A stretch of 64,000 nt of DNA from a virus (taxonomy: Duplodnaviria; Heunggongvirae; Uroviricota; Caudoviricetes): positions 1-64,000 of the IMG/VR virus record IMGVR_UViG_3300031555_002194; one strand, written 5' to 3'. The first letter of the stretch is position 1. Each line of letters begins with the position of its first letter. Below, piece by piece: positions 10,239 through 34,129 of this stretch. A model generated the notes under the pieces. That model was not told the origin of the DNA and searched no databases. It worked only from the letters and a program-made list of their open reading frames with translations. Made by a program: the position numbers and the translations under genes.

Positions 10239-10521
10239 TAAATATGGCAGTTTACACAGAAGATGTAAAAGATAAAATCAAAGATTGGTTTGCAGGATGC
10301 ATATATTTATCTGATGTAAGAGAGTTATATAACGCTATCCGCGCTGAAGCAGACATCCAACATGACATGATTACAGAAGAAATAGTGAAAAGGGATTTAA
10401 GAATGACACTGCCATAAGGAGGAGCATAAATGCTTAGATATTGCGAAAGAGCAAAATGTTGGTCTTGTTGTGATGGTGAATGTTTAAAATGTGCATCGCT
10501 GTTAGGATTGGAGGAATTGTA

Positions 10522-10980
10522 ATGAAAACGAAAACACCAGATTTTAACCTAACATGGTATGTTTACCGCCATAACATCAACAAAGACCAGATTTACAAAT
10601 ACAACATTTTTGACCACGGACGTTTCAGCGAAGAAGTTTACGAACTCATAAATAAACATGGAATGACATACGAAGATTTTTCAGAGAAACTTCGTTGTAC
10701 TCTAATGTATTACTTCTGGTGTAAAGCAGAACATGAAATCGTAATCACATCATTTCCTCCGTATATCGATAAGAAAGAGTTTAATAGATTATCTTCTGAA
10801 GAATTTAGAGTATGCTCCGATGTTCGTTTGAGATGTGGCGAGAAGATTGATATTTATGAACAGATCAGAATGAACTGGGATGTGTTTGTAGATTATGTAT
10901 GGAACAGCAAGAAGAGAGGTAGTAAGAATGACACCAATGGAACTAAAAACAACAAAGAAAGGGACGTACCTGAAAATTGA
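10522..10980 (+). CDS. hypothetical protein
   Basis: ORF 10480-10980. The internal ATG at 10522 follows GGAGGaattgta. Confidence 0.4.
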   Translation: MKTKTPDFNLTWYVYRHNINKDQIYKYNIFDHGRFSEEVYELINKHGMTYEDFSEKLRCTLMYYFWCKAEHEIVITSFPPYIDKKEFNRLSSEEFRVCSDVRLRCGEKIDIYEQIRMNWDVFVDYVWNSKKRGSKNDTNGTKNNKERDVPEN

Positions 10981-14346: not shown

Positions 14347-14670
14347 ATGACAATTAACTTTAGCACACCATATGTTGCTGTGGTTGATATGCTGCTATCT
14401 ATTGCAGTTGTTTTGTATATCACACAGGGAATGGCAATGCATAGCATTATCAGAAAACACAAACTGGAACAAGAATTAGAAAAGTTTGCAAACATATTTT
14501 ATTTTGAAACAGCCGTTGTTTTAACACTGTTGACCTTTTTAATTTGTCATTTTGTGCAGGAAATTTTTATTAACGGATCTGTTGTAACAAGTGGTGTTAT
14601 TGGTTTTATTTTAGGAGTTGTTGGCGGTATTGCTGTTGTTAGATATGTGAAAAAGAGGGTGGGTAAATGA
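14347..14670 (+). CDS. small membrane protein (2-3 TM)
   Basis: 107 aa with hydrophobic segments and a basic C-terminus. Confidence 0.4.
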   Translation: MTINFSTPYVAVVDMLLSIAVVLYITQGMAMHSIIRKHKLEQELEKFANIFYFETAVVLTLLTFLICHFVQEIFINGSVVTSGVIGFILGVVGGIAVVRYVKKRVGK

Positions 14671-15521
14671 GTGAATTAGTTTTTTGTACAAAAGAACATA
14701 TTGCAGAGTATATAAGAGATGCGAAAGAAGAATTGCATGAAAATGTAAAAGATTATATTCGTAAAGGACATGCCAGACCTAGACTATTAATCATTCAGGT
14801 TGGTGATAATCCTGCGTCCAATAAGTATGTAGCTGGTAAAATTTCTGATGCCAATGAAGTGTGTATTGAAACATCCTTGATGAAGTTTCCTGAGACTCTT
14901 ACATACGCAGAACTGACAGAATTTCTTTTCAAAGAAAGAGATAACTTCCACGGAATCATAGTTCAATTACCTCTTCCTGAACACCTACAAAGAGAATTGG
15001 TAAACATTCAGGAATACATTAGACCAGATCAGGATGTTGATGGTTTCAGAATTGATTCCTTTCATAATGCTTGTACGCCGGAAGGTATTGTTCGTTACTT
15101 GGAGTACAGTAAGGGTGCAGATTGGCTCGTTGGTAAACACGCAGTCATTGTTGGACGCAGCGATTTAGTTGGTAGACCTCTTGCAAAAATGCTGCTTGAT
15201 CGTGATTGCACTGTAACTGTTTGTCATTCTAAAACAAAACATCTGAAAGCGGTTTGTAAGAATGCAGATATCCTTATTAGTGCTGTCGGTAATGCAAATA
15301 TGATTGATAAGAATTTTATAAAGAACAGCAAGACGGTTGTTATTAATGTAGGTTTTGATTTTGTTGACGGTAAAATGGTAGGGGATATTGACGTTAATTC
15401 TGTTAAAGAAACTACTCAGTGGTGTACTCCTATTATTGGCAGCTCTGGACTGTGGACAAGATTATCTTTGATGCAAAATACTTTTGATGCGTATGTAATG
15501 CAAGAGGAGATTGATATGTAA
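14667..15521 (+). CDS. folD: bifunctional 5,10-methylene-tetrahydrofolate dehydrogenase/cyclohydrolase
   Basis: Contains GKHAVIVGRSDLVGRPLAKMLL...CTVTVCHSKT...ADILISAVGNANMI, the canonical FolD NAD(P)-binding and catalytic signature. Confidence 0.85.
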   Translation: MSELVFCTKEHIAEYIRDAKEELHENVKDYIRKGHARPRLLIIQVGDNPASNKYVAGKISDANEVCIETSLMKFPETLTYAELTEFLFKERDNFHGIIVQLPLPEHLQRELVNIQEYIRPDQDVDGFRIDSFHNACTPEGIVRYLEYSKGADWLVGKHAVIVGRSDLVGRPLAKMLLDRDCTVTVCHSKTKHLKAVCKNADILISAVGNANMIDKNFIKNSKTVVINVGFDFVDGKMVGDIDVNSVKETTQWCTPIIGSSGLWTRLSLMQNTFDAYVMQEEIDM

Positions 15522-16121: not shown

Positions 16122-16347
16122 GATGCGATAAATGAAAACAAATAATACATACAAAGGTAAAATACACAAAGATTCATTAATTGAAGATTATCCATGTCAT
16201 AAAAGACAACATTCTAAAAATAAAAGAATGAAACGCAGGATTGCAAAAAGAAGATTGGATAATGAGATTTTTGAATTATATGAAGTTCCAAAAGGATATT
16301 TTGGAGAAAAGAAACAGTCTTTATTAGAAATTAAGGAGAAAGAAACC

Positions 16348-16782
16348 ATGAAAGAAATTAAAATTAAATACCACAACAAAGACATTGAAAAATTGACATA
16401 CATTGATGGCAAATCTGATTGGATCGACCTGAGAGCAGCCGAAGATGTTGTAATGAAAGCTGGTGAGTTTAAACTGATTAACCTTGGTGTAAGCATGAAA
16501 CTTCCCGAAGGTTACGAAGCTCATATTGTTCCCAGATCAAGTACGTTCAAAAACTTTGGCATCATTCAGACAAACCATCAGGCAGTCATTGACAACTCTT
16601 ATTGTGGCGATAATGATATCTGGAGATATCCTGCATACGCATTGAAAGATACAGAGATTCATGTAAATGATAGAATTTGCCAATTCAGAATTGTAGAAAA
16701 CCAACCTAAGATTAATTTTGTAGAAGTTGATTTTCTGGACGGTCAGGACAGAGGCGGAATTGGCAGCACAGGCAAACAGTAA
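16348..16782 (+). CDS. dut: dUTP diphosphatase (trimeric dUTPase)
   Basis: Motifs [31 protein letters not shown] and RGGIGSTG are present. The ATG at 16348 follows AAGGAGAAAGAAACC. ORF-track 16132-16782 adds a 72-aa highly basic in-frame N-terminal extension of doubtful reality. Confidence 0.8.
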
Positions 16783-17074: not shown

Positions 17075-17219
17075 AACATATCAATAACACATTATATATC
17101 ACATCACAGTGCGTTTCTGACATCGTAAAAAAAATCGGTGTTAGTGACGCACTTTTTGTAGAAGTAATAAGTAAGATAAAAAATTTACTACTTATACAAA
17201 AGACAAAGGTGTGATAATT

Positions 17220-18446
17220 ATGAACAAAGAGGAATTATTGAATTTCGCTCTGGAAAATGGTATACTTGATTTACAACACATCCAACACGAAATTCAAATG
17301 CGTGAAAATGAAAAATATTTAAACCAACATCCGTATTCCATTTGGGAAGGCAATAACGGTAAGCATTATACCTATATCCAAGATGACAATACCGAAAAAC
17401 GTAAATTGGTCAAAAGGAATACGAGAGAAGAAATTGAAAAAGTTGTTATCGATTACTGGAAAGCAAAAGTCGAAAATCCAACTCTTCAAGAAATATTTGA
17501 CAGATGGAATGATCACAAACTTCAGTTACAAAAAATTTCTGATGCAACATATATTAGAAACATTGCATTGTTCAAAAGACATTTCAGCGATATTCAAAAT
17601 ATGAAAATCAGAAGTGTAACAAAAGAGTTTTTAGTAGATTTTCTTGAACATCAAATTCCTAAATTTAACATGACTGCAAAAGCATTTTCTAATTTGAAAA
17701 CACTTGTCAAAGGCATGTTTAAAAGAGCAAAAAGAGACAAGTTTATTGACTTTCATATTGAAGATGTATTTATTGAATTAGACATTCAAGACAGAGAATT
17801 TAGGAAAGTGATCAAAGAAGATTGTCAAGAAGTCTTCAACGAAGAAGAGACGGATAAAATCATGGAATACCTGTTTCAAAACATTGATATTTACAATCTT
17901 GGTATCATATTGTTATTCGTTACAGGTATGAGAATTGGTGAATTGGTGGTGCTACAATCTTCAGATTTTGATGACGATGGCAGAGTGGTTAAGATCAGAA
18001 AAACAGAAACAAGATACAAAGAAAAGGATGCACATACTTGCATTTATGGCATTAAACATTTCCCTAAAACTGAAGCTGGCGTAAGAAATGTAATCATTCC
18101 AGATGATTATTTATGGATTGTTAAAAGGCTAAAAATGCAGAATCCTTTTGGCGAATTCATCTTTATGAAAGATGGAAGAAGAATGACAACCAATATGTTT
18201 AGAAATAGGTTGGGAAAAATCTGTAAATATCTTGGCATACCTCACAAGACACCGCATAAAATCAGAAAAACTTACGGCTCTATTCTAATCGACAACAACG
18301 TAGACACAAGATTGATTACTGATATGATGGGTCATACAAGTATTGCCTGTACTGAACGACACTATCATAGGAACAGAAAAAGCCTTGATAGAAAGTCTGA
18401 AATCATTAGCAGCATTCCTGATTTTCAGATTAAAGCAGTAAGGTAA
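17220..18446 (+). CDS. int: tyrosine recombinase / phage integrase
   Basis: C-terminal catalytic signature HKIRKTYGS...MMGHTSIACTERHY gives the R..H..R..Y tetrad positions. The ATG at 17220 follows AAAGGTG. Confidence 0.85.
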   Translation: MNKEELLNFALENGILDLQHIQHEIQMRENEKYLNQHPYSIWEGNNGKHYTYIQDDNTEKRKLVKRNTREEIEKVVIDYWKAKVENPTLQEIFDRWNDHKLQLQKISDATYIRNIALFKRHFSDIQNMKIRSVTKEFLVDFLEHQIPKFNMTAKAFSNLKTLVKGMFKRAKRDKFIDFHIEDVFIELDIQDREFRKVIKEDCQEVFNEEETDKIMEYLFQNIDIYNLGIILLFVTGMRIGELVVLQSSDFDDDGRVVKIRKTETRYKEKDAHTCIYGIKHFPKTEAGVRNVIIPDDYLWIVKRLKMQNPFGEFIFMKDGRRMTTNMFRNRLGKICKYLGIPHKTPHKIRKTYGSILIDNNVDTRLITDMMGHTSIACTERHYHRNRKSLDRKSEIISSIPDFQIKAVR

Positions 18447-18700
18447 TCATACTGGTAATCATATGGTTACTTTATGCCCAAAGTAATCGCGAGGTAATCA
18501 AAGGTAATCAAATAAAATCGACAAAAATGTTGATTTTCTGGGAAAATATGAATGTTCGCCAATGGTTCGAGTCCCACCAGGCGCAGTCTTATATCTGTAT
18601 TTTCCCTTGAGAAATCAAGGGATTTTTTATTTTCACAAAAGACAAGTAATCAAAAGGTAATCACTGAGGTAATCAGAACATACATTTGTTGTGAAACCTG
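18440..18700 (+). other. putative attP region: tRNA 3'-end core (~18563-18585) flanked by ≥8 GGTAATCA arm-type repeats
   Basis: GGTTCGAGTCCCACCAGGCGCA corresponds to a tRNA T-loop plus 3' acceptor stem, but no complete tRNA gene is present. Copies of (G)GTAATCA lie on both sides. The region sits immediately 3' of int. Confidence 0.55.
18604..18633 (+). terminator. rho-independent terminator-like hairpin (likely the tRNA terminator carried on attP)
   Basis: CCCTTGagaaatCAAGGG followed by ATTTTTTATTTT. Confidence 0.5.
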
Positions 18701-18956: not shown

Positions 18957-19184
18957 ATGGCACGAACAAGAAGACCTCGTAATAACAAAACAACGACAGA
19001 ACTGATCATGGAAGCTCAGAACGCCATCGAAATTAAAGAACAGGAATTACATGAATTAAATGAACAGTTGAAAGAGTTATACAAACAGTTAGAACAAGAA
19101 AAAATCGAAGCGTTGTTGCAGACAATTAAAGAAAAAGACATCTCACTTGACAGAGCTAAAGAAATCATTGATAATATTGATTGA
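18957..19184 (+). CDS. small basic N-terminus / coiled-coil protein
   Basis: Strong RBS AAGGAGGatttatat before the ATG. A putative TATAAT −10 lies about 60 nt upstream. Confidence 0.45.
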   Translation: MARTRRPRNNKTTTELIMEAQNAIEIKEQELHELNEQLKELYKQLEQEKIEALLQTIKEKDISLDRAKEIIDNID

Positions 19185-19227
19185 GTTGATCCACAGTCAA
19201 TTCCATCTTTCTAAATCCAAAAGAATT

Positions 19228-19260
19228 CGTCCTGTTTATGCAGGACGTTTTCTTTTATTT
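19228..19260 (+). terminator. rho-independent terminator
   Basis: CGTCCTGtttatgCAGGACG followed by TTTTCTTTTATTT. Confidence 0.55.
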
Positions 19261-19269
19261 AAATAAAAA

Positions 19270-19305
19270 GGTAAAAAAATGGGAATGCCATATAGACATT
19301 CCCAA
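19270..19305 (-). terminator. rho-independent terminator for the − strand late operon end
   Basis: GGGAATGtctatatggCATTCCC followed by ATTTTTTT on the − strand. Downstream of the tail-collar gene. Confidence 0.5.
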
Positions 19306-19340
19306 AATTAACTTAAAAATATTTTTAAATTCTCTTTTAA

Positions 19341-19892
19341 TTAAGAGGTTCTTTTCCAAATATAAACTGCTAAATATGGAGGCATGTTATTGTGAGCTAC
19401 ATTGCCACCAATATTATTAATTGTAATATCATGAATATGATTTCCATTTGATGTTGTTGCACCAAGAATATAATCGGCGCCTGTTGTAGCTCTGTGAACA
19501 GAATAGCATCCACCACTAGAATTATATACTGCATCTTTATCTGCGCCAATTTGATGAGTATGTGCGCCATTTTCAGATAATGACGCAGTGTGATTATGAC
19601 TTGGTATTTCATCAACTGTTAATGTATGAATGGCTTCGCCACCAACGCTTCCTGCTTCATAATTATTCCCAGCAGCAAGCAAAAATGTATCTTTAATTTG
19701 TTCCCATGTTCCAAATCCAAATAATACAGATGGGTTTGCATTAATAACAGACATGTAAATAGATCCTATCGGCTATACTTGCTCTAAAACAACAGTATCT
19801 CTGTTAATCATTATCCTATTTTCATTACCAGAAGTAGAATCTAAAAAATCTGAATATAACATTCCATCATCAGTTAAATATATATCCATCAT
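19341..19892 (-). CDS. phage tail-collar-domain fibre protein (with in-frame TAG at 19773-19775)
   Basis: HTLTVDEIPSHNHTASL...HNNMPPYLAVYIWKRT is the tail-collar signature. The conserved N-terminal PIGSI motif lies upstream of the ORF-track ATG and across an in-frame TAG. Frame is open back to ATGATG at 19887-19892. Confidence 0.55.
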
Positions 19893-19977
19893 TAAATGGC
19901 GGTGGGTTTGTCATCATATTATAGGCACTACCTCGTAAAAATTTTAATTTTGCTATGATAATCACCACCTTAGAACA

Positions 19978-20796
19978 TTATTTTCGCAACTTGTTTTTCA
20001 TTATTAATTCTGAATCATATAATGTTACAGTGTTATTACCCAATATTTTTTTAATACGACCAAGGTCTATTAATAGTTTTTTCAGTTCGTCAATATTTAA
20101 ACTACATTTATGATCAGAACCTTCCATGTTTTTATCTAGCGTAATATGCCGCTCAATCAATTCGGCGCCCAAAGACATAGCGACAATTGTAGGCAATGTA
20201 TCAACTTCATGACCACTATATCCAACCTTTAGATGCGGATATTTTTTTTGATATGATGTTATAACATTAAGATCAAGTTCATTATCTAAAGCAGGGTATG
20301 TGCTGTTACAATGCATAATTCCACACAGATTATTTAGTGCAGATATTGCATTTTTAATTTCTTCTTCTGTACTCATTCCATCTGAAATAATTACAGGTAC
20401 GCCCCATTCGTTAACCGCATTTAACAATTCCATATCTGTAATACACGCACTTGGTATTTTAACAAATGGGATGTCATCAGTATATCTTTTCATAAATTCA
20501 ACACTGTCAACATCCCACACGCTTACCGTCCATTGGATACCATTTTTTTTACAGTAATCATTGATAATATCATATTCAGTTTGATCAAACTCAACATCAT
20601 ATTTGTATTCCAAATATGTCATTTCTTCATTTTTCCAGATGCGTTTTTGTGTTTTTTGATGTTCTGGAACACAAACATCTGGATTCCGTTTTTGAAATTT
20701 AACAACATCAACACCACAGCGTTTCGCTTCTTTGATGAGTTGTAAAGCGATATTTAAATCGCCATTATGATTGATGCCAATTTCTCCAATAAACAT
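19978..20796 (-). CDS. NeuB-family nonulosonic acid (sialic/Kdn-like) synthase, TIM-barrel domain only
   Basis: MFIGEIGINHNGDLNIALQLIKEAKRCGVDVVKFQ, VGYSGHE and ERHITLDK closely follow the NeuB/PseI/LegI consensus. The C-terminal SAF domain is absent. Confidence 0.8.
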   Translation of the reverse strand: MFIGEIGINHNGDLNIALQLIKEAKRCGVDVVKFQKRNPDVCVPEHQKTQKRIWKNEEMTYLEYKYDVEFDQTEYDIINDYCKKNGIQWTVSVWDVDSVEFMKRYTDDIPFVKIPSACITDMELLNAVNEWGVPVIISDGMSTEEEIKNAISALNNLCGIMHCNSTYPALDNELDLNVITSYQKKYPHLKVGYSGHEVDTLPTIVAMSLGAELIERHITLDKNMEGSDHKCSLNIDELKKLLIDLGRIKKILGNNTVTLYDSELIMKNKLRK

Positions 20797-20843
20797 ATTA
20801 TAATCTCCTTTTATTCCTTATAAATTAAAATTTGTTTTACAAA

Positions 20844-22082
20844 TTAAAAAGTTCCCCATTCAATTGCGGCTTCAACAACTTCGTCAACATATGTTATATC
20901 AGCTTTATTGGCAATTTCACCAAGTCGTTTATCTTCAGAATAATTAGTAGAAATTAATGCAATAGTAATATTTTTACTTGTTGCTAAATCAAAATCTTCC
21001 TGACTTAACAGATTGTATGTATGTGGAGAAACAGATATTGTGATTGCGCTTGTATTTGCCGCAGAAGAAACAATATAAGAAATAGAATCATAATCTACAG
21101 GCGACCATGAAATATTTAAATTAACTTTAAGATTTTTAATATACAATCTTCTTAAAGAAGGACAGCTACCAAAAGCTTCTCTCCAGCTGCCAGATTTGGC
21201 ACCAAAGTTAGTTGTATTAACTGCATCAAAAGTACCAGCACACTCAATGTTTCTTGCGTCAAACATCAGACCTCTACAATCTTTTGGTAATGTAATAGTG
21301 AATCTAGAAGAATCATGACCGGGGAAACCAACAACTCTTGCCCCATAATAGCTAAATGCTTGAGTTGCCCATGTTGCTTGCGCAAAACTATCTTTATACA
21401 ATTGATTACTCCAGTTAGGGTCACTGTTTACGCCAAATGCAAGGTAAAAAGACTTAAATGTGTTTTCAGGAATAGTTGAATAACACAGAGGTAGTTGGGT
21501 ACTACTACATAGTGTATAGTTCGTTCTTTTGCTAACATCACTGATGTATGGATTATCGCTCCAAAAAATACAGTTTGTATATTGTGCAAATTGCACTTGA
21601 TAAGCACCTTGGTTGCCTTGGCTCCATTTAGAATACATAGCCTCATCATTCATATCAAACAGAATATTTGAGAACAATTTAACACCTTCAAGCCAAGGAT
21701 AATATGTTGCTAAAGCGCCGGGGAATGAAGTTAATGATAAAATAGAATTCTCAGATACTGTAACAATTTCAAATGTATCACCTTCAGCAAATGTGATTTC
21801 AACATTTGAGTTTGCAGGGTATACTTTGGAAATACCGTTGGTAACAACCGCTACATCTTCAATACAATAAAAGCCTAATACTGTATTTGAACTTAATTTT
21901 TGATACAAATTTTCAACATATTCTTTGCTTGCTTTTGTTTCGTCTAGTGATCTGATAGATGCATCAACAGTATCTTTGTACAAAGAACCATCTTCGTTAA
22001 ACACTTGAGAAGATAAAGTTTTAGGCGCAATTTTTGTTTGTTCGTTGTCTGTTAACCAACGAACCTTGATGTTTTCATTCAT
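20844..22082 (-). CDS. tail fibre / receptor-binding protein
   Basis: N-terminus MNENIKVRWLTDNEQTKIAPKTLSSQV resembles conserved tail-fibre N-termini. The body is Ser/Thr/Asn-rich and β-strand-like. Confidence 0.5.
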   Translation of the reverse strand: MNENIKVRWLTDNEQTKIAPKTLSSQVFNEDGSLYKDTVDASIRSLDETKASKEYVENLYQKLSSNTVLGFYCIEDVAVVTNGISKVYPANSNVEITFAEGDTFEIVTVSENSILSLTSFPGALATYYPWLEGVKLFSNILFDMNDEAMYSKWSQGNQGAYQVQFAQYTNCIFWSDNPYISDVSKRTNYTLCSSTQLPLCYSTIPENTFKSFYLAFGVNSDPNWSNQLYKDSFAQATWATQAFSYYGARVVGFPGHDSSRFTITLPKDCRGLMFDARNIECAGTFDAVNTTNFGAKSGSWREAFGSCPSLRRLYIKNLKVNLNISWSPVDYDSISYIVSSAANTSAITISVSPHTYNLLSQEDFDLATSKNITIALISTNYSEDKRLGEIANKADITYVDEVVEAAIEWGTF

Positions 22083-22096
22083 TTATTAACCCTCCT

Positions 22097-23260
22097 TTAT
22101 TCAAAGCGTTTGAAGAATAAGAAGGTTTCTTCGCACACGGGTTTAATTTCAATTTCAGTACCATCATAGGCAATTGTATTGCCTACTGGATTGGGTACAG
22201 GATCTCCAACATAAGCGGTTTCGTGTCCGCCTGTTTCATATAGTTTTAAATAAGCGGTGCCACCAGCATTTTGAATACTTTTAATAAATGCTTCTGTTGG
22301 TTCGTAGCGAACTGTATCATCGTCCATACAATGCCAGAATTTAACTGGGCAACGATAATGTCTATATTCAAGACCATCAGCTCCAGTAGTGACATTGCAT
22401 TTCATTGGATTGTAACCCATGATTTTCTTTTCATCATAAATCCATTTTAATCTATCTTTAGTAGATGTTGATTCTGGATCTAAATCAAATCCGTAAACAT
22501 TGGCTAAAACTGCGCCGGGGCCATTTACAGAACACCAAGGCCAAGGATCAAGCCAAATCTGGTTATAAGTGTCTAACACAGGACTCCAACCAGCCTGTGC
22601 CAAAACAGGAATATGGCTATGTAAAACAATGTTGGTTGTAGTGATGCCACCTTCAGAAATACCAACTAAGAATACTTCTGGATGGAAATTAAAGTTTTCC
22701 ATTGCGTAATTGTATGCTTTAATATGGCTTTGAATTGCAATGAAAGAACCAACAGAGTCCTGAAGTCTTAGATTTCCTTTCTCAATCGCATATTGTTCTG
22801 GTAATCCGTTAACATCCATTACGGCATATCCATTTGCAACCAAATATCTTGAAATAGATTGGAATTCAGCCTGAGAACTATCTGCTGTAACTGTACCACC
22901 GCCACCATGTGCGCTAATTACAAGACGAGTTTTTTTGCCTTTATCTGTATAAGAATCAGGGAAAATTAACACACCATAATCAGTGTATGGTTGATAGCTG
23001 TCATTAAACTCTGGGCCAAGATTGTCTTCTGGAATATACATGGGGGCGCAATTTACTTCAACTGTAAAGCGATGAATTGTTCCTGCATATTTAGATCCAG
23101 TTTCTGCAACAACAATGTCTTCATCATCTTCTTCACTAATAAAAGCAACATTTTCTTTGTCTGCTTTATATAAAAGTTCTTTATCAAGTTCCTCTTTTAA
23201 TGTGGTTACACCATTATAATCGAGAAATTTATATTGATTTATCATAAAATTCTCCTCCAA
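22097..23260 (-). CDS. α/β-hydrolase esterase of the HSL family (HGGG + GxSxG)
   Basis: Oxyanion motif SAHGGGG and nucleophile elbow GISEGG. Located among the fibre genes. Confidence 0.6.
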   Translation of the reverse strand: MEENFMINQYKFLDYNGVTTLKEELDKELLYKADKENVAFISEEDDEDIVVAETGSKYAGTIHRFTVEVNCAPMYIPEDNLGPEFNDSYQPYTDYGVLIFPDSYTDKGKKTRLVISAHGGGGTVTADSSQAEFQSISRYLVANGYAVMDVNGLPEQYAIEKGNLRLQDSVGSFIAIQSHIKAYNYAMENFNFHPEVFLVGISEGGITTTNIVLHSHIPVLAQAGWSPVLDTYNQIWLDPWPWCSVNGPGAVLANVYGFDLDPESTSTKDRLKWIYDEKKIMGYNPMKCNVTTGADGLEYRHYRCPVKFWHCMDDDTVRYEPTEAFIKSIQNAGGTAYLKLYETGGHETAYVGDPVPNPVGNTIAYDGTEIEIKPVCEETFLFFKRFE

Positions 23261-23265
23261 TATAA

Positions 23266-23300
23266 TGTTAAAAAGAAAAGGGCAGTTTTTACACTGCCCA
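23266..23300 (-). terminator. hairpin terminator downstream of the coiled-coil fibre gene
   Basis: GGGCAGTgtaaaaACTGCCC followed by TTTTCTTTTT on the − strand. Confidence 0.5.
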
Positions 23301-23323
23301 ATTCTAACAATTTAATAAGACTA

Positions 23324-24868
23324 TTATGCAAACAGAGCTTTGATGTCATCTTCAGCGATAGCTTCAACACTATGTACTACAGTTTCCAGAGTGTCGATTC
23401 TACCAGACAGAGCTTCTTCTGCTGCTGTAGCTCTATTTGTTTCAACCAGAACATCAGCATCGATAGCAGCGTCTGCTTCTTCTTTTGTGTAGTAGCCAGC
23501 AAATTTAGCGTCAACGCCATTGATTATTTCTGTCAGTTCAGATTTCAGTGCAGCGTCCAGTTCAGCAGCTTTTGCTTCAGCATCAGACTGTGCTTTAGAT
23601 TCAGCAGCCATAGCTCTTTCTTTTTCAGCTTCTACCAGAGCTGTCATGTCTTCAACAACTTTTGCGTCTGCTGCTTTGTAAGCTGTATCCATATCGGAGA
23701 TAGCTTTTTCATTAGCAGCGATTCTTTCGATTGCACCATTCAGGGCTTCAACAGTTGCATAGTCACCAATTTTCAGAGCTTCGATTGCTTTCTGAACATA
23801 AGCAACAACTGTAGCTTCTTCGCCCTCGCCGCCAATACCATCAACGATTGCTTCCAGAGCAGCTACTTTACCAACGATTACATCAGCTTCCGCAGCTTCG
23901 GACGTGATGTATGTCTGCAGTTCTTTCAGGCTATCCAGAGCTTCGTCCAGTGTTTGACCATCTTCCAGTTTCATGAAAGCGTCCATTCTAGCTTTTTCAG
24001 CTTCGATAGCTGCTTCCAGTTCAGCGTCTTTTTCATCCAGAGCTGCTTTTTCAACGGATGTCAGATAGTCATCTTCGATTGCTTTCACACGAGCATCGTT
24101 ATCTGTTTTGTACTGTGTCAGCGCTGCATCGATACCATCAGCTTTTTCATCTACTTCTGCAATATCTTCTGCGATTGCTGCTTCAGCTTCTGCTCTCAGG
24201 CCTGCTTCTGCTTCAACAGCTGCTTGGATAGCTTCTGCAATAGCAGTTGCTGTCATAGCATCTGTGATACCATAACCTTCCAGTGTTGTTGCTTTATCAG
24301 CTTTGCCTGCAACAGCCGCATCATTAGATTCAATGTAAGAATCCAGAGCACCCTGAACTTCTTCAGCAGCGCCTTTTGCTTCATATGTATTTGCCAGATC
24401 CAGAGCTTCGATTGCATCTTCGATAGCTTCAGTGATGGAGCCAACGGAACCTTCTTCGTCACCTGTCAGTGCAGAAACGATTGCTTTCAGGTCAACGATG
24501 TCACCTTCAGCATCTGCCACTCTGCCCATTACTGTTTCGCCTTCACCAAGTGCTGTTACACCAACTTTTGCGGATAGTGCGTCAATATTACCATTGATAG
24601 TTTCGATAAAACCATCAATCTGTTCTGTTGTGTAGTAGTCATAAGGCAGTTCAATGCTAAATGCAGCCTGTGCTTCGCCTACAGGAGCATCTACTGTATA
24701 GAAGTGCATTGTAGAAACGCCTGTTGTTTCATCTTTAGAGATGGATACAGTTTTGATGCTGGACGCTGTTGCATCGCTAATCTGACCTTCTACCCAAGAT
24801 TTTAGTTCACCATGATATGTTGTCAGGTTTTCCAGTGTCATGAAATTGAATGTTTTGATTTCTGCCAT
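23324..24868 (-). CDS. Ala/Glu-rich coiled-coil fibre protein (fibritin-like architecture)
   Basis: 514 aa with long heptad-like AEAEAA/ALDEKDAELEAAIEAEKA segments. Its GC-rich codons contrast with the AT-rich genome. It generates a long Cys/Phe-rich shadow ORF on the + strand. Confidence 0.5.
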   Translation of the reverse strand: MAEIKTFNFMTLENLTTYHGELKSWVEGQISDATASSIKTVSISKDETTGVSTMHFYTVDAPVGEAQAAFSIELPYDYYTTEQIDGFIETINGNIDALSAKVGVTALGEGETVMGRVADAEGDIVDLKAIVSALTGDEEGSVGSITEAIEDAIEALDLANTYEAKGAAEEVQGALDSYIESNDAAVAGKADKATTLEGYGITDAMTATAIAEAIQAAVEAEAGLRAEAEAAIAEDIAEVDEKADGIDAALTQYKTDNDARVKAIEDDYLTSVEKAALDEKDAELEAAIEAEKARMDAFMKLEDGQTLDEALDSLKELQTYITSEAAEADVIVGKVAALEAIVDGIGGEGEEATVVAYVQKAIEALKIGDYATVEALNGAIERIAANEKAISDMDTAYKAADAKVVEDMTALVEAEKERAMAAESKAQSDAEAKAAELDAALKSELTEIINGVDAKFAGYYTKEEADAAIDADVLVETNRATAAEEALSGRIDTLETVVHSVEAIAEDDIKALFA

Positions 24869-24947
24869 AATAAATGACCTCCTAAATTAAAATAAAATAG
24901 TAAAATAGTAACTATATAAAAACACTCAAGGTGTCTTTATTTATAAA

Positions 24948-25820
24948 TTATTCAAAAAGATTTGCAATGTCGTTGTGTTCAATATCATACAGTCTTTCAG
25001 CAAATGCCTCGTCGATCTTTTGATCAAACTGTTGAGCAATTGTTTCTTCGACAATGTCATTGATTTCTGCTTTTAAGTATCCTGCAACATATGCTTCTAC
25101 TTCGTCTTTTGTTAGAAAATCTTGTGCGGACATCCACTGTTCTGTGATATATTTATCTGTTTCGCAGTGGAAATCTTTGTCCAGAATAAATCTTACAATT
25201 TGTTTACCAGATACTTTTGTAACAAAAATATCTGTGCCAGAGTGTTCAACTGTAAACAGCGCATCTTTACTTCCAGAATGAATTGCTTCATAATCTCCAC
25301 CGATAACATACTGTCCAGTAATACAATAAACACCATCTTCTAATTCAGATACGATAATTGCATTAGAAAGACTGCCATATAAATGCAGAATAGGTTTGTC
25401 TTCTAAATCTGCATATTTACGATTATTGATATAATCAATAACATTTTCTGCTTCACCATAATCACCGATCTTACCATTGATAACAGTGACTACATCATCC
25501 ATCTTTGCGTAAGAGTCCAAGGAAATGCTATTGATAATTTCTTGTTTCAGTGCATCAACTGTTGCGGCATCCAGCCCAATTTCAACAGCCCATAAATTTT
25601 TTGCACCATTCTTGAAATACAATACATTGTTGCTATATACGACTTCTGTAATTTGATCGTAGCCACAAATAGGGACAAGCACACCAGCTTGTGTTACCCA
25701 CGCAAAAGATTGACTCTCTTCAATAAAACAAACAGCGGGATATCTTAGATAACCTCTGTCTAAACTCTGCTGTGCAACCTCATGAGTTGAAGCGTGATAA
25801 TATTGAGGTATAAGAGCCAT
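24948..25820 (-). CDS. hypothetical structural protein
   Basis: 290-aa ORF with a TAA stop. Confidence 0.45.
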   Translation of the reverse strand: MALIPQYYHASTHEVAQQSLDRGYLRYPAVCFIEESQSFAWVTQAGVLVPICGYDQITEVVYSNNVLYFKNGAKNLWAVEIGLDAATVDALKQEIINSISLDSYAKMDDVVTVINGKIGDYGEAENVIDYINNRKYADLEDKPILHLYGSLSNAIIVSELEDGVYCITGQYVIGGDYEAIHSGSKDALFTVEHSGTDIFVTKVSGKQIVRFILDKDFHCETDKYITEQWMSAQDFLTKDEVEAYVAGYLKAEINDIVEETIAQQFDQKIDEAFAERLYDIEHNDIANLFE

Positions 25821-25823
25821 ATT

Positions 25824-26096
25824 TTATCCCTCCGTTTCTAATTGTTTTTTTAATTTGACATAAGTGGACTCTGAAATTTCTTCAATATGATATTCGGTAT
25901 TGTCTGGCTGAAAATTATACAAACCATCAATATGAAAGCATTTTTGTCCATCAGATGATAATACAGCCTCTGCAATTTCCTGTTCACATAGCAGTACAGC
26001 ATTGTGTTTTTGCTGATATCGCACATATTGAAGTTGTGACAACAAGTCCACAACATTATCGTTTAAAGTGATTTTCCAAAACATAACTGCCTCCAA
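25824..26096 (-). CDS. hypothetical protein
   Basis: 90-aa ORF. Confidence 0.4.
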   Translation of the reverse strand: MEAVMFWKITLNDNVVDLLSQLQYVRYQQKHNAVLLCEQEIAEAVLSSDGQKCFHIDGLYNFQPDNTEYHIEEISESTYVKLKKQLETEG

Positions 26097-26103
26097 TTAA
26101 AAA

Positions 26104-26133
26104 AAGAGGGTCATTAAGACCCTCCGTTTCTTT
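26104..26133 (-). terminator. hairpin terminator after the giant fibre gene
   Basis: GGGTC/GACCC stem flanked by A/T runs. Confidence 0.45.
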
Positions 26134-29100
26134 TTACACGCCAAAGGAGAACATTAATAGAACACCATATTTATTAGTGTTTGGTGATTTGATATTGTAA
26201 GTAGTACCATCTGCTTGAACCAGCCACCAATAAGATGTAGAAGCCACATTAGGAGAGCGAGTCCAATATTCTTCATAAACATCTGGCGTATCTACTTTCG
26301 CTCTTTTTCTCATTGTAGGATTTGTTATATAAGAAACACATCCGTTGGTTTCGTATGAATATGGTTCTGTATTTTTTGAATTATCCAAATCATACACAGC
26401 TGGAATGTAGAAGTAACAATTAGAGTTAGACACTTCGGACGATTTATCACCAACTGAAGAACTAACGACAACTGGTTTGATTAGCGCTTTCCATAGAGGG
26501 GAAATTGCCTTAACCAATCTTGTATTCAGCTTTCTATTCAATACTGAATCTGCCCAACCACCAGAGTTACTACTTGTTTCATAGATGATAGAGTTCATGC
26601 TCATCAGATTTGTTGCCAAGAATGTCATTTTTGACATTTTTGTATGTTCGTTTGCTAAATAGTGTGCTCTAAATTTAGCCAATTCCATAGGGATAACTTC
26701 GTGAGTCCATTGAGCAATGTCAGAACATACTTTGTCGCCAAGATCAGCTTTCCACAGTTTGCACCAATAAATAGTACCTTTACAGTGTTTTTCAATAAAA
26801 CCGTCATCGGCTTTTGCTGCGCCAAGAATTAAAGAATAATTATGTTCTGGAACTCTCGGTGCTACTAATGTCTCAATTGAAATATCTTCTTGGCTAATAT
26901 TACTCATGTAAACATGAACAGTATTGCTGCCTGCCTCATGTCTCAGCACAAGCATTTCTCTATTTGTTCCATTTGCAGGAATAGCGGTTTTGTTGTTCCA
27001 AGCCAATTTTACACCAGTGTAAGAATTGTATAGTTTAAAACCATTCATGCCATTATTTTGCATACACTGCATCAAAGTAGCACCATCTGCATTTCCTTCT
27101 GCAAATGAGAAATCACATGCTAATGTCCAAGAACAATCAGTTTCCATTAATACAATACCAGTGTCAATAAAGTTCGAGCCATCAAAATCAGTTTTTTCGT
27201 TGATAATAACAGTTTCTTCGATATCATCTGCGTGGAAATCATGACCAATTTCAAAATTGATACTATCTTTGATTGTTAGCACATCTTGTTCTAGGCCAAG
27301 TTTCATCATTGCATAAATTTCAACTTTGCTCATTTCAGAAAGTTCTTTGTTGTCAAAGCATCCTTCTGAGTATTCAAACGAATCAAATACCGCATTAATA
27401 TTTTTGTTGCCATCAACTAGTCCACTATTGTCCCAGTGGCTGAACAGATAATATTTATATGCAGATTCTTCTGCTGTATACAGTGGCAGATCTTCATCGT
27501 AAGGTACTATAGACCCGTAAGGGGCTGTTGTTGTTTGTAGAACTGTGCCTTTAGATGAATATGTCACAACATAATTTCTGACACTTTCAGAATAAGTTGC
27601 TTTAACAACTTTATCGCTAAATACCTGTCCTGTTAATGGAGTATCCCATTCTTTAAATGTAAAGTTTGTGCTTACTGTACTTTCTAAAGTAGGGGTAGGA
27701 ATAGGGTTGTCAGTTCTAGTCAGAGGATCTACTGCGTATCCACCTTTATCTACATATTGTACATCCAGTATAGTTTCATTATCGTCTGCGTTCACAAAAG
27801 TAACTGTAAACTGATTTACTAATGTATTGTAAGTAATATTTAAATCACTCCACGCATCTTTATAAATTTGTAGACTCTTTTCTTTTGCAACTGTTGTATG
27901 TACAGTACCAGTTAAGATGGACTGATCAACTGTGTAACCAGAAGAGTCAACACCTCTGAATGTTAACATTCTATCTAAGATAGATGTGTTTTCCAGATTA
28001 TAACTTGCATCCCAGTTCATATTGATTAAACGCAATGTGTTTAACATAGGTGCGTTATTGATGATATTGTATGTGTTCACTGCTGGTGTATTTTCCACAA
28101 TTAAGAACTGAAGATTGTTATATCCAGACATCTCAAATGTTTCCAGATAATTCAGATTCTTCATTGTTAGAGAGATTACTGCAGGAATGTATGCAGACAC
28201 AAGTTTTCCACCATTAGCAAAAATGATACCTGTTGCACCGGAGTTTTCAGCTCTAAGCTCAACCAGATTGTTACATTGAGATAGGTCAACAACAGAGTTG
28301 ATTCCAGTTGTATTTCTGATATCCAGATATTCAAGCAATTTGTTATTGCCAAGTGTCAGCTGTGTTAGATATGTGTTAGCATATCCATTTGCATCACTAC
28401 CAATTACAAGGCTCTGCAGTCTGGATGCTTTAGAGAAGTCATTATCACCAATATAACATTTAGATAGATCGCCAATTGCCTGAATGAAGCTTGCACCATA
28501 AATCAGTGTAATATCTGCTGTGTCGCCATCATAAGGAATTGTGTATTCTACACCAGCTTTTGCTCTAAAGTTTGTAGGTGTTGTGTTGCCACGCTTAACA
28601 CCAAGGTACATGTCAGAATATGGTGTAATATACAGTGTGAAATCCTGTTTAATTGCGGCACCAACGGGGTTGTTGAAACGCATCATAATTTGGTCTGCAG
28701 TTGCTGTCGTACCAAAGTATTTTGTTGCAAAATACAACTCCTGATTGCGTTCAAACATTCTACGCTGATATTTTTTACGGCCATTCAGCATTTCTTCTAA
28801 GAAACGAGGTGTTTGTGCGCCTTCGATAGAGTTATCAATAGAAATACCAAGGTAAGTTCTCAGATATTTTCTTTGAATATCAAGTCTCCAAATTTCTTCG
28901 GGGAATTCACTTTGTGCTTTATCAAATTGTTCAATCAAACTTGTAGCACTCCACGCATTAGCACTTTCTCTGTTAACAAACATTGCTTGCAGCTCATCTT
29001 TAAACAGGTCACGGATTCTACAGAAGAATGTACTTTCTGCCGCGCGATAGATATAAGAAGAAGTAGGATCGCCATCTACATAATAGTCTGTATCTTCTTT

Positions 29101-33402: not shown

Positions 33403-33421
33403 TGTTCTCCTCCTTTCTCTA

Positions 33422-34129
33422 TTATTTCATCATAGAATCAATGTCGATCACTTCGGAGCCTTTAAAAATTTTATCAAGATAAGTTACACCATCTGCTTCG
33501 CCATCCATATCAACATCAATCATCTGAGAGATTGTATGTTCAGAAATATCGTCCAAAGCAACGCCTTCGCCAGCAACGCCATTCATTGTAGCAATATGGA
33601 TCTTTTCATCATTAATAACGATGTCTGTTGCCATATTTTCATACATCATCTGACTCTGTGCTTCTAGATTCTGGCTTAACATTTCCAGAGCAATCAGTCT
33701 TTGATCGATGCCGCTAAACATTTCATCAATTTCAATATCAGACCAAGGAACAATAGGTGTGATTGTAATATAACCCTCTTGAGAATTTCTGTTTACCCAT
33801 TTCGCTTCTTCGTCAATAAACTGTAGGCTATAAATTCTGAATACAACAGCAATGTCACCAGCTTCGGATGTTAGCTGTAGATCGCCGGGAACAATAAACT
33901 GCATATAAGCATCATCTTTATATGTTCCTTTAACCAGTTGTAGCAGCTTCAGTTTATTTGAAATAGGCAGTTTGTACTCCATGTAAACAATAGCGTTGGA
34001 CATATCTATGTCTTTATACTGTTTGTGAATTAAAATTTGAATTTTATCTGCACAATTAGTACGCTGCATAATTGTTTCTTTGTTTGTAGTAATAACCTGA
34101 TTGTTATCATTTACTAAAAGTGTATACAT
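33422..34129 (-). CDS. hypothetical protein
   Basis: 235-aa ORF. Confidence 0.45.
   Translation of the reverse strand: MYTLLVNDNNQVITTNKETIMQRTNCADKIQILIHKQYKDIDMSNAIVYMEYKLPISNKLKLLQLVKGTYKDDAYMQFIVPGDLQLTSEAGDIAVVFRIYSLQFIDEEAKWVNRNSQEGYITITPIVPWSDIEIDEMFSGIDQRLIALEMLSQNLEAQSQMMYENMATDIVINDEKIHIATMNGVAGEGVALDDISEHTISQMIDVDMDGEADGVTYLDKIFKGSEVIDIDSMMK

Follow-up and report, generated by a model that had tools for sequence, protein, structure and literature searches.

Why does a gene for a NeuB-family sugar synthase lie beside an esterase gene among the tail-fiber genes of a phage? The locus is on the minus strand of the window, i.e., the whole 64,000-nucleotide stretch of phage DNA analyzed here. 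A sequence-only reading had joined the two genes in one model, in which the esterase removes O-acetyl groups from a host glycan for adsorption and the NeuB pathway rebuilds or masks the same glycan for exclusion. Our analysis favors, at slightly better than even confidence for it as the whole explanation, two unrelated neighbors: a displaced gene of a Kdn-type cassette and a swappable fiber esterase. The genes at the locus are as follows.

23324-24868, minus strand: fiber-like protein of 514 aa, Ala/Glu-rich and coiled-coil, upstream of the esterase
22097-23260, minus strand: fiber-type esterase (putative fiber enzyme) of 387 aa, with an N-terminal helix/anchor (about residues 1-55) and an alpha/beta-hydrolase domain (about 55-387)
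20844-22082, minus strand: fiber-like protein of 412 aa, the esterase's partner by co-inheritance
19978-20796, minus strand: NeuB-like synthase of 272 aa, a TIM barrel without SAF domain (from ORF and Pfam)
19341-19975, minus strand: disrupted short tail-fiber gene, of which only the Gp10_C/tail-collar ORF 19341-19754 remains

The synthase is recognized by the Pfam NeuB profile (PF03102, E = 2.3e-66, residues 20-255). The match scores 224 bits against a gathering cut-off of 22.1 and covers profile positions 1-239 of 241. A Pfam search found no SAF domain. The chain stops after the TIM barrel, in agreement with the sequence-only reading, and falls approximately 75 aa short of the 349-aa NeuB and PseI chains with solved structures. 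Among the matches listed, all 120 closest homologues are 253-291 aa long. Assignment to the NeuB/NnaB equivalog TIGR03569 (221.8 bits, cut-off 399.65) or to PseI (TIGR03586; 166.8 bits, cut-off 340.25) was rejected.

In the alignment, the equivalents of E25, K53, Q55, K129, S132, S154, Y186, S213, H215, E234, H236, and D247 of Neisseria meningitidis NeuB (NmNeuB) are all conserved, and these PEP, metal, and catalytic positions are invariant or nearly so across 201 homologues. They include the metal ligands His215 and His236 (H196 and H217 in the phage protein), the PEP-binding Lys53, Lys129, Ser132, Ser154, and Ser213 (K33, K113, S116, S138, and S194), and the catalytic Glu25 and Glu234 (E5 and E215). 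The exception is Glu134. Its equivalent is Cys118, and among the 201 family members the position is occupied by C, L, S, M, H, or A and in no case by an acidic residue (E or D). Arg314 is absent as well because it belongs to the missing SAF domain. Judged from the alignment, the sugar-binding determinants of Neu5Ac synthase (Arg314 and Glu134; roles taken from PMC8208679) are therefore missing. The phage protein has in common with NeuB of N. meningitidis (1XUU), PseI (8H2C), and SpsE (1VLI) a TIM-barrel NeuB domain, the ligands of the metal, and the Lys and Ser residues that bind PEP. It differs from them in lacking the SAF (antifreeze-like) domain and Arg314, in the residue at position 134, and in scores that fall far short of the NCBIfam equivalog cut-offs.

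The same SAF-less architecture is seen in the "environmental" NeuB group (PMC8208679) and in the 290-aa Leptospira protein 6NCS, which is the best PDB match (5e-33). The Trp that this group has at the F112 position is invariant in the phage family. No member of the group has a demonstrated substrate, and the paper is silent on phages, whereas IMG/VR holds at least 279 viral copies of the SAF-less NeuB. Cellular members of the SAF-less group include Brevibacterium. Since marine relatives adjoin PseB/PseC-like genes, the family is tied to no single sugar. Neither the NeuB-like gene nor the esterase gene is carried by any isolated phage.

In its relatives (loci designated L plus a number below), NeuB abuts its own pathway genes, not fibers. 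When neighbor clusters from 83 NeuB loci were searched against the window by tblastn, the partner genes were located at 36456-40574. With the adjoining Ser/Thr-rich gene, they span 36453-41208.

44270-45523, minus strand: GT2 glycosyltransferase (PF00535, 2.7e-18), among DUF285/LRR repeat genes
40549-41208, minus strand: Ser/Thr-rich protein of 219 aa, linked to the cassette by synteny
39510-40571, minus strand: ParB/sulfiredoxin (Srx)-like protein of 353 aa, with an EGNHR motif and weak fold matches
38665-39525, minus strand: radical-SAM/SPASM protein 1 (SPASM 1.6e-11; motif CNRKCDWC)
37725-38765, minus strand: radical-SAM/SPASM protein 2 (SPASM 1.7e-10, Radical_SAM; motif CNRKCTWC)
37060-37728, minus strand: CMP-sugar-type cytidylyltransferase (PF02348 CTP_transf_3, 5.3e-9, above gathering)
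36453-37154, minus strand: HAD phosphatase/PMI-type cupin fusion (DIDGT motif at residues 32-36; PF01050)
20844-36437, minus strand: separating block of 15.6 kb between the HAD-cupin gene and NeuB

These products confirm that the phage carries a nonulosonate-type pathway, with NeuB, the cytidylyltransferase, the HAD/PMI-cupin, the two radical-SAM/SPASM proteins, and the GT2 all in the window. The cupin part of the fusion matches PF01050 above gathering (1.5e-13), and the protein also matches GMP_PMI (1e-12) and the TIGR01689 capsule phosphatase (5e-7). In L093, L002, L004, and L095, its gene immediately precedes NeuB, as a small HAD gene does in 58 loci. The cytidylyltransferase has PseF and KdsB (both sub-threshold) as its best NCBIfam matches. 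A homologue occurs in 64 of the first 87 loci compared, and by a separate count a cytidylyltransferase is present in 66 NeuB loci. Both radical-SAM/SPASM proteins have the CxxxCxxC cluster motif and a C-terminal SPASM domain; the true start of protein 2 is probably Met75, near 38543. The ParB/Srx-like protein has no Pfam or NCBIfam match, and its EGNHR motif (compare the GxxR(H)R type) is invariant in the only 16 homologues found. The AF2 model (pLDDT 86.5) suggests a putative NTP-binding core; the protein may serve the cassette as a kinase or another NTP-dependent enzyme. Its top Foldseek matches are ParB, SbnI, PadC, sulfiredoxin, Noc, and KorB, all weak (E of 3e-3 or higher, TM about 0.2). 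Weak as they are, the matches to ParB, SbnI, PadC, and sulfiredoxin are mutually consistent.

The cassette runs in the order Ser/Thr-rich, ParB/Srx-like, two radical-SAM/SPASM, cytidylyltransferase, HAD/PMI-cupin, and NeuB-like synthase. These genes are contiguous with NeuB in at least 10 loci (L093, L002/3, L004, L095, L006, L007, L001, L097, and L138). Wherever the flank is readable, the cassette lies in or beside tail genes, flanked by Baseplate_J, Mu Gp48, Phage_tail_C, DUF5048, and homologues of the window's tail genes. The L093 cassette is 63-78% identical to that of the window gene by gene, and the GT2 of the window is 87% identical to one 0.8 kb upstream of the L093 cassette.

In the window, this order is broken. 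The 15.6-kb block, which holds lysis-like genes, a 2422-aa protein, fiber-like genes, and the esterase module, is absent between HAD-cupin and NeuB in all of the contiguous loci named above. The NeuB-like gene is the stranded terminal enzyme gene of a normally contiguous phage sugar-nucleotide cassette. A flank with FolD, dUTPase, and small genes is common to the window, L093, and L091, which makes L093 and L091 sister phages. L091, whose NeuB is 82% identical to that of the window, shares the split arrangement. The block would have been inserted between HAD-cupin and NeuB in this phage lineage, and the insertion would have left NeuB beside the fibers and the integrase/att end.

What would the cassette make? 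By its gene content, the enzyme set most likely represents a Kdn-type route that is phosphorylated and draws entirely on central metabolites. Isomerization of Fru-6-P to Man-6-P would fall to the cupin, and the SAF-less NeuB-like enzyme would join Man-6-P and PEP into a 3-deoxy-nonulosonate-9-phosphate. Once the HAD domain had stripped the phosphate, the cytidylyltransferase would convert the free ulosonate to a CMP-sugar. Tailoring or feeding of the route may be the part played by the two radical-SAM proteins and the ParB/Srx-like protein. In the relatives and the window, the synthase is linked to a phosphatase, a CMP-synthetase, and a Man-6-P source, as in a pathway of the Kdn-9-P type.

The route from Man-6-P and PEP to Kdn-9-P, followed by a phosphatase and CMP-Kdn formation, is established in Bacteroides thetaiotaomicron (BT1713-1715) and Prymnesium parvum (PMC6200933). 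Common to those systems and the phage set are a NeuB-family synthase acting on a sugar-6-phosphate and PEP, a HAD-type phosphatase, a CMP-sugar synthetase, and a start from mannose-6-phosphate. In contrast, neither the SAF domain nor an equivalent of E134 is present in the phage synthase, and the phage phosphatase is a HAD domain of about 100 aa fused to a PMI-type cupin. The phage set also adds the two radical-SAM/SPASM proteins and the ParB/Srx-like protein, is linked to tail genes, and has a putative product. Cyanophages likewise pair an ulosonic-acid synthase with a CMP-activating enzyme, as in KdsA/KdsB and other viral cell-wall-sugar genes (PMC12801897). However, their synthase is a KdsA rather than a member of the NeuB family, partners of the radical-SAM, HAD-cupin, and ParB-like kinds are lacking, and the genes are not beside fibers.

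The next question is where the sugar would go. A scan for TM windows detected nothing resembling a transmembrane segment in the cassette enzymes or the GT2. Because the cassette proteins are soluble and their genes run in the same direction as the tail genes, we lean toward cytoplasmic attachment of the sugar to tail or fiber proteins of the phage itself. The Ser/Thr-rich protein is a candidate glycan acceptor or fiber domain. It is 73% identical to the L093 product in the same position, recurs as a domain within a 1000-aa tail protein in L002, and in L006 lies at the N-terminus of the product encoded next after NeuB. No CMP-sugar transferase of the sialyl-, Kdo-, or Maf/MptE-type is recognizable in the window. 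CMP-sugars are not known substrates of GT2 enzymes.

A host envelope or flagellar glycan is a close alternative target. It has its own full explanation in lysogenic conversion, possible though rather unlikely, in which the cassette including NeuB is a prophage "moron" that feeds a CMP-ulosonic acid to host glycosylation while the virion stays unmodified. Flagellin, S-layer, teichoic acid, or capsule would be altered, blocking superinfection or changing recognition. O-antigen modification by phage Gtr and Oac, and the prophage protein TarP, are precedents. The cassette and NeuB are near the integrase/att end: NeuB is approximately 1.4 kb from an att core resembling a tRNA 3' end, with the integrase beyond it, and NeuB is followed by an integrase in L093 and a serine recombinase in L002. 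Both 41440-34931 and 23280-19304 are flanked by terminator-like hairpins, which would allow them to be transcribed independently. However, the cassette has no membrane protein, flippase, or polymerase. It is also co-oriented with the tail module, internal to it in several loci, and followed after NeuB by further late-type genes in L006, L007, L138, and L001, and in four lineages it comes with a Ser/Thr-rich structural domain.

Virion glycosylation has been described in mycobacteriophages (Freeman et al. 2023, as cited in PMC12619734 and PMC12801897). The likeness lies in glycosyltransferase genes embedded among structural genes and in cytoplasmic modification. Those phages use host nucleotide sugars, whereas this one would bring a complete pathway for a putative acidic ulosonic sugar. 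The most detailed version of virion decoration, a temperate phage of rumen or gut Clostridia with a self-sufficient, radical-SAM-tailored CMP-Kdn-like pathway that decorates its own tail fibers, is doubtful as a whole. If virion decoration is true, this would be the first case of a nonulosonic acid on a bacteriophage virion, and the SAF-less NeuB core, which hundreds of uncultured phages from marine and gut sources carry, would point to a widespread, undescribed virion-glycosylation system.

Could the stranded NeuB instead be a decaying leftover, non-functional once cut off from the cassette, like the collar-fiber pseudogene? The gene is 15.6 kb from its partners, and the very next gene is damaged. 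The remnant at 19341-19754 (Pfam Gp10_C, 9e-16, and PHROG tail families) is the 3' part of a collar-fiber gene of originally about 205 aa. Three-frame translation revealed ATA at the start, a frameshift in TATATAT near 19880, and an in-frame TAG near 19770; a terminator-like hairpin follows at 19304-19280. NeuB had been placed directly upstream of a tail-collar fiber gene, and the adjacency holds, but the fiber gene is not intact. NeuB itself, however, is a full-length ORF with every catalytic residue conserved and is under purifying selection (dN/dS 0.12-0.21, with 0.21 against L091, which has the same split layout). Its leader, including the RBS, is identical in L091, and the 100%-identical protein is found on 7 contigs, the 6 read being JGI metagenomes. 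Decay is therefore improbable.

The esterase is, by its motifs, an alpha/beta-hydrolase superfamily serine hydrolase with Ser-Asp-His in canonical order. It has an oxyanion motif (H118GGGG, in SAHGGGG) and a nucleophile elbow (G200-I-S202-E-G204). On closer alignment, the triad S202/D314/H346 is intact and invariant in 20 homologues, down to 44% identity. The AF2 model has an alpha/beta-hydrolase core (pLDDT 78) and matches many alpha/beta hydrolases in Foldseek with probability 1.0. The top 30 matches are S9 peptidase catalytic domains, so the protein may act as a peptidase. The HGGG and GxSxG motifs had suggested the HSL family (lipolytic family IV), a label that had to be dropped because Pfam gives no Abhydrolase_3 match at E of 0.01 or below and the nearest folds are S9-like. 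The best Pfam matches, all below gathering, are Hydrolase_4 (22.4 bits against 27), Peptidase_S9, and BD-FAE.

The esterase had also been placed between two fiber genes. The flanking genes have no family match, and their fiber nature is suggested by composition, N-termini, and synteny. The 514-aa protein, whose gene is followed by a terminator-like hairpin at 23299-23280, has no match in Pfam or PHROG and is 68% identical to the product of a 528-aa gene upstream of NeuB in L091. The 412-aa protein has none in Pfam, PHROG, or NCBIfam. An 866-aa protein from a 200-kb jumbo-phage contig (L086/L087) matches it at 77% identity over that protein's first 407 aa, and the gene for the 866-aa protein directly follows an esterase homologue of 90% identity. 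The esterase gene is thus among fiber-like genes in two unrelated phages, and the module is mobile. The catalytic domain is 85-94% identical behind differing N-termini in proteins of 397-558 aa; these N-termini include collagen repeats (one protein) and FLDxxGVxxLW-type starts. Because the same domain sits behind many N-terminal anchors, it behaves like a fiber-borne enzyme, and a virion location is predicted.

A shared glycan for the two enzymes is the least probable of the explanations: they are adjacent in one terminator-bounded stretch (23280-19304) and both plausibly deal with glycans, but neither esterase homologues nor the pair formed with the 412-aa gene occur in about 170 NeuB-bearing loci, no NeuB lies within 10 kb of the esterase module in the jumbo-phage contig, sister phage L091 retains NeuB with other fiber genes at the corresponding position and lacks the pair, the ancestral place of NeuB is beside its own pathway genes, and the esterase fold is not SGNH. 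Known sialate-O-acetylesterases use the SGNH fold. The proposed functional pairing thus finds no support, and nothing points to an O-acetylated sialate as the esterase substrate. The synthase, too, lacks the Neu5Ac-type determinants. Because the module is mobile, the genes do not co-occur, and the relatives are laid out differently, the adjacency is a by-product of module shuffling.

As one of two unrelated neighbors, the esterase would most likely remove ester groups from a polysaccharide on the host surface while the phage adsorbs. Receptor-destroying esterases include SGNH-type tailspike deacetylases and the HE proteins of influenza C virus and coronaviruses. Like these, it would be an attachment-mounted enzyme that edits receptor-glycan esters, its mounting on the virion being putative. 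Unlike the SGNH enzymes, it is an alpha/beta-hydrolase whose fold is closest to S9 domains and to esterases that degrade cell walls, among them Xanthomonas LipA. The domain would have been recruited from a cellular Clostridia esterase family behind a short N-terminal anchor, and the esterase and 412-aa genes would then be exchanged among phages as a host-range module. Standalone relatives of 307 aa, 47-51% identical, are present in cellular loci, and one of them adjoins a GDSL esterase and two rhamnosidases.

The noteworthy result of this analysis lies beyond the coordinates originally considered. A compact gene set, tail-linked and bearing radical-SAM enzymes, is predicted to be a sugar cassette centred on a large, uncharacterised branch of the sialic-acid synthase (NeuB) family without SAF, the C-terminal antifreeze-like domain of solved NeuB and PseI chains. 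Phage sugar-pathway genes and enzyme-bearing fibres are kinds already known, and the cassette is a variant of these. Phage-encoded sugar pathways are usually interpreted as host-surface "auxiliary" genes, and their actual targets are largely unknown. The window itself is AT-rich (G+C 32-39%) and consists of a plus-strand replication/lysogeny arm and a long minus-strand tail arm. ORFs and profile matches confirm that a NeuB-like synthase and an esterase lie between tail/fibre-like genes, as the sequence-only reading had placed them.

Features of the early arm, the att end and the distal fibre block
14667-15521, +, FolD-like protein (methylene-THF dehydrogenase/cyclohydrolase), early arm
16132-16782, +, dUTPase, early arm
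17211-18446, +, integrase, from its own sequence and the Phage_integrase match of the corresponding gene of locus L088
19341-19754, -, ORF of 137 aa with a Gp10_C/tail-collar domain (9e-16, plus PHROG tail matches), downstream of NeuB
19978-20796, -, NeuB-like protein, 272 aa, Pfam NeuB over the entire domain (E=2.3e-66)
20844-22082, -, fibre-like protein, 412 aa, zero Pfam, PHROG and NCBIfam matches
22097-23260, -, putative esterase, 387 aa, alpha/beta-hydrolase
23324-24868, -, Ala/Glu-rich coiled-coil protein, 514 aa, upstream of the esterase

Two sister phages, L091 and L093, keep the FolD-like and dUTPase genes at 52-95% identity, and the homologues in L091 are annotated. The sequence GGTTCGAGTCCCACCAGGCGCA at 18564-18585 (+), 120 bp past the integrase gene, resembles the T-arm and acceptor 3' end of a tRNA. 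ARAGORN found no full tRNA at this site, and a complete tRNA-Thr is present at the equivalent place in L093. The site is probably the att core, which would put NeuB about 1.4 kb or less from the prophage end. A PHROG scan gave zero matches for the NeuB, esterase and fibre-like genes, and the DNA of 19001-27000 gave just short, irrelevant matches in 50,697 GenBank phages. A 447-aa Cys/Ser/Phe-rich ORF at 23234-24577 (+), antisense to the Ala/Glu-rich fibre gene, is an opposite-strand compositional artefact and was discarded as a gene.

The NeuB-like protein aligns with solved NeuB, PseI and SpsE chains over the TIM barrel only, which upholds the earlier description of a barrel without SAF. Its best PDB match is 6NCS, a SAF-less Leptospira protein of 290 aa (5e-33). 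With residue roles taken from PMC8208679 and the NeuB structure literature, the equivalents of E25, K53, Q55, K129, S132, S154, Y186, S213, H215, E234, H236 and D247 of N. meningitidis NeuB are kept, and they are invariant or nearly so across 201 family members. The sugar-site determinants are not kept. Arg314 is missing with the SAF domain, the E134 position is Cys in the window and Glu/Asp in 0 of the 201 members, and the F112 position is an invariant Trp. Without Arg314, which binds the N-acetyl group, and without E134, the site could suit another acceptor sugar, possibly a phosphorylated one. Scores fall well short of the curated cut-offs (222 vs 400 bits for NeuB/NnaB and 167 vs 340 bits for PseI). 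By these HMM scores and residue patterns, the protein is placed in the NeuB superfamily with its predicted condensation chemistry intact; it is not demonstrably a Neu5Ac or pseudaminic-acid synthase. It falls in the "environmental, SAF-less" group pointed out in PMC8208679, for which no substrate is known. Members of this group are spread widely over cellular genomes, those of Brevibacterium, Neomarinimicrobiota, candidate phyla (CPR) bacteria and Asgard archaea among them, and the family occurs in at least 279 IMG/VR loci of uncultured viral contigs. A tblastn search of 50,697 GenBank phage records returned 3 distant matches only. As far as these collections show, the branch is common among uncultured phages and, bar those matches, missing from isolated ones.

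The company of NeuB was defined by clustering the neighbour genes of 83 NeuB loci and searching the clusters back against the window. A CTP_transf_3 cytidylyltransferase accompanies NeuB in 66 of the 83 loci, and a HAD-like protein of about 100 aa lies immediately upstream in 58. Two layouts are built on this core. The "marine" layout adds PseB-like, DegT, Maf/MptE-like, GT1 and GT2 genes; no homologue of the Maf/MptE-like companions was found in the window. In the "type A" layout, which belongs to the clade of the window NeuB, the core is joined by a PMI-type cupin, by between one and three radical-SAM/SPASM proteins and by a 350-aa protein of unknown family. The entire type-A set was recovered in the window, 16 kb from NeuB.

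Cassette genes of the window
36453-37154, -, HAD domain (DIDGT) fused to a mannose-6-phosphate-isomerase-type cupin (PF01050, 1.5e-13)
37060-37728, -, cytidylyltransferase
37725-38765, -, radical-SAM/SPASM protein with a CNRKC(D/T)WC motif
38665-39525, -, radical-SAM/SPASM protein with a CNRKC(D/T)WC motif
39510-40571, -, 353-aa protein with zero Pfam and NCBIfam matches
40549-41208, -, Ser/Thr-rich protein, 219 aa

The cassette amounts to 7-8 soluble proteins and is always found in a phage context. Tail genes adjoin it in every locus with a readable flank; they include Baseplate_J, Mu Gp48, Phage_tail_C and DUF5048 genes, as well as homologues of tail genes from the window itself. The 353-aa protein has just 16 detectable homologues, with an invariant EGNHR motif. 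Its model (pLDDT 86.5) has only weak structural neighbours, namely ParB-N, SbnI, PadC and sulfiredoxin, which suggests an NTP-binding or phosphotransfer role. It was considered as the missing glycosyltransferase and dropped, since the model resembles ParB/Srx-fold proteins. Neither the cassette nor phage SAF-less NeuB genes are described in the searchable literature.

Among 43 large ORFs in the flanks of type-A cassettes (L005-L007, L012, L022, L028, L097 and L138), 7 encode further Radical_SAM proteins, four of the seven with Fer4_12. By these counts, radical-SAM enzymes are unusually enriched around the type-A cassette.

Four activities are recognisable in the cassette, all predicted: a PMI-type isomerase, a NeuB-type synthase, a HAD phosphatase and a CMP-sugar synthetase. 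Step for step, they correspond to the phosphorylated Kdn route demonstrated by biochemistry for B. thetaiotaomicron and Prymnesium, in which Man-6-P and PEP give Kdn-9-P, then Kdn and CMP-Kdn (PMC6200933). In the corresponding scheme for the phage, the cupin would turn fructose-6-phosphate into Man-6-P, the NeuB-type synthase would condense this with PEP to Kdn-9-P, the HAD domain would release Kdn, and the cytidylyltransferase would form CMP-Kdn. The radical-SAM pair and the ParB/Srx-like protein would have no explained place in this route. The product is likely a CMP-activated 3-deoxy-ulosonic acid; that it is Kdn-like is a tentative and somewhat doubtful assignment. The identity of the product would give the SAF-less NeuB branch a function.

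The sugar may decorate phage tail or fibre proteins, a reading that we favour while rating it as rather less than probable. We lean to it because TM-like segments are absent from every cassette protein and from the GT2 glycosyltransferase, no flippase or polymerase is present, the cassette genes are co-directional with tail genes, and a Ser/Thr-rich structural domain is tied to the cassette in four lineages. The virion glycosylation of mycobacteriophages (Freeman et al. 2023, cited in PMC12619734 and PMC12801897) is a precedent. Lysogenic conversion, in which the cassette would modify a host surface or flagellar glycan, is the serious rival, rated somewhat lower. In its favour are the position of NeuB near the integrase and the tRNA-3'-end-like att core, and terminator-like hairpins on either side of 41440-34931 and of 23280-19304. 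The window has no recognisable CMP-sugar transferase, a gap for virion decoration and lysogenic conversion alike. Knowing the product would also make clear if phages put sialic-acid-like sugars on their adsorption apparatus or on their lysogens. The answer matters for phage-host recognition and superinfection exclusion, and possibly for immune or mucus interactions in gut ecosystems; decoration of the virion with such a sugar would be of high interest if true.

The gene order of relatives accounts for the distance between NeuB and its partners. In L093, the genes run from a tail-tip protein through an LRR protein, GT2, 220-aa protein, ParB-like protein, two radical-SAM proteins, cytidylyltransferase and HAD-cupin to NeuB and an integrase. 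Its flank matches that of the window (a small gene 92% identical, FolD and dUTPase), its cassette genes are each 63-78% identical, and its GT2 is 87% identical to 44270-45523. The cassette is also contiguous in L002/L003, L004, L095, L006 and L007, in three Clostridia-type MAG contigs (L096, L097 and L138) and, in reduced form, in L001, a 4.7-Mb bacterial genome where it sits in a cluster of tail genes that is probably a prophage. By parsimony, the contiguous layout is ancestral. Only in the window is NeuB seen apart from the cassette. L091 appears to have the same split; its NeuB is 82% identical, and the gene for a 514-aa-fibre homologue lies a short way upstream of it. The dN/dS of NeuB is 0.21 vs L091 and 0.12-0.13 vs relatives with the contiguous layout. 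The leader with its RBS is identical in L091, and a 100%-identical protein is recorded on seven contigs, of which the six examined all stem from JGI metagenomes. Judged by these comparisons, NeuB is maintained despite separation from its partners.

The separating block of 15.6 kb (20844-36437), between the HAD-cupin gene and NeuB, holds a TM and coiled-coil protein, a C39-like peptidase, a 2422-aa protein, fibre-like genes and the esterase module. A lysis-like set lies mid tail arm, between the cassette and the 2422-aa protein:
34154-36437, -, 259-aa protein (one TM segment, long coiled coil), 125-aa protein and Peptidase_C39_2 protein (5.5e-11)
A terminator-like hairpin (34931-34907) stands just upstream of the C39 gene. 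The 2422-aa ORF (26134-33402, -) contains LRR-like repeats and, at its C-terminus, DUF6273 (2.9e-5); it also matches PHROG 14959, a family of unassigned function (2.5e-77). On the other side of the cassette, four paralogous genes (41469-47315, -) are made of a 23-aa DUF285/BspA-LRR repeat (…NLTGSPVCGxNVTNM…). The GT2 gene lies among them. All four match a single 582-aa L093 gene, and they look like a receptor-binding gene family that has expanded and may be variable.

The sequence-only reading had the esterase and NeuB jointly handling a sialic-acid-like glycan. A nonulosonate-type cassette does exist in the window and a fibre esterase is plausible; the functional pairing of the two is not supported. 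No esterase homologue was found in the other NeuB loci examined (about 170), and in L091 genes of 314 and 64 aa precede NeuB in place of the esterase and the 412-aa gene. These two genes recur jointly, at 90% and 77% identity, in a 200-kb jumbo-phage contig that carries gyrase, ligase and multi-domain lysins, with no NeuB within 10 kb of the pair. The adjacency is best explained as a distal host-range module swapped at the end of the fibre block, beside a stranded NeuB. The module would be a clean case of two-gene exchange, at about 90% identity, between a temperate and a jumbo phage.

The esterase has sub-threshold Hydrolase_4, Peptidase_S9 and BD-FAE matches, nothing significant in a PDB sequence search, and zero tblastn matches in the 50,697 GenBank phages. 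H118-G-x-G-G, G-x-S202-x-G-G, D314 and H346 are invariant in 20 homologues (down to 44% identity); the catalytic triad S202, D314 and H346 is intact. In the model (pLDDT 78), a helix near the N-terminus (residues 15-35) is followed by an acidic linker, which is disordered, and by an alpha/beta-hydrolase core. Its nearest PDB folds are S9-peptidase catalytic domains, with the Xanthomonas LipA cell-wall esterase and a rumen lipase also listed; the nearest entries in a viral structure library are actinophage "esterases". The "HSL family" label was rejected on these folds and the absence of an Abhydrolase_3 match. By its motifs and modelled fold it belongs to the serine hydrolases and is probably an esterase; peptidase activity is possible. 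With its S9-like alpha/beta-hydrolase fold it would bring a new class to the folds of fibre-mounted phage enzymes. Proteins of 397-558 aa share the catalytic domain at 85-94% identity behind N-termini that are unrelated. Among these N-termini are FLDxxGVxxLW-type starts and glycine-rich repeats, and one 58%-identical relative has a collagen repeat. Standalone versions of 305-313 aa, 47-51% identical, occur in ordinary cellular loci of Clostridia and Oscillospiraceae, one of them adjoining a GDSL esterase and two rhamnosidases. Such a distribution is as expected of a cellular enzyme that phages have recruited to their fibres.

Phage recodings of TAG to Gln and TGA to Trp are known. In the related phage L002/L003 (Logan SRR14160769_472), the genes at 8808-10834 have four in-frame TAG codons across the cytidylyltransferase, HAD-cupin and NeuB, all aligned with conserved tyrosines of three homologues (12 of 12 comparisons). 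TAG may be decoded as Tyr there, or the codons may have arisen from TAY very recently in a suppressor background; the 18.6 kb available for this locus yielded no tRNA. The tail-collar gene of the window (19341-19975, -) is disrupted, its sole intact ORF being the final 137 codons. The upstream frame, IAKLKFLRGSAYNMMTNPPPFNDGYIF, has a good RBS and ATA replacing ATG; a frameshift follows within a TATATAT run, and then an in-frame TAG right before the collar-domain PIGSIY start. TAG recoding was ruled out for this remnant because the same gene is frameshifted and its start codon is gone, no tRNA is encoded, and 7 of the 34 minus-strand ORFs checked stop at TAG.
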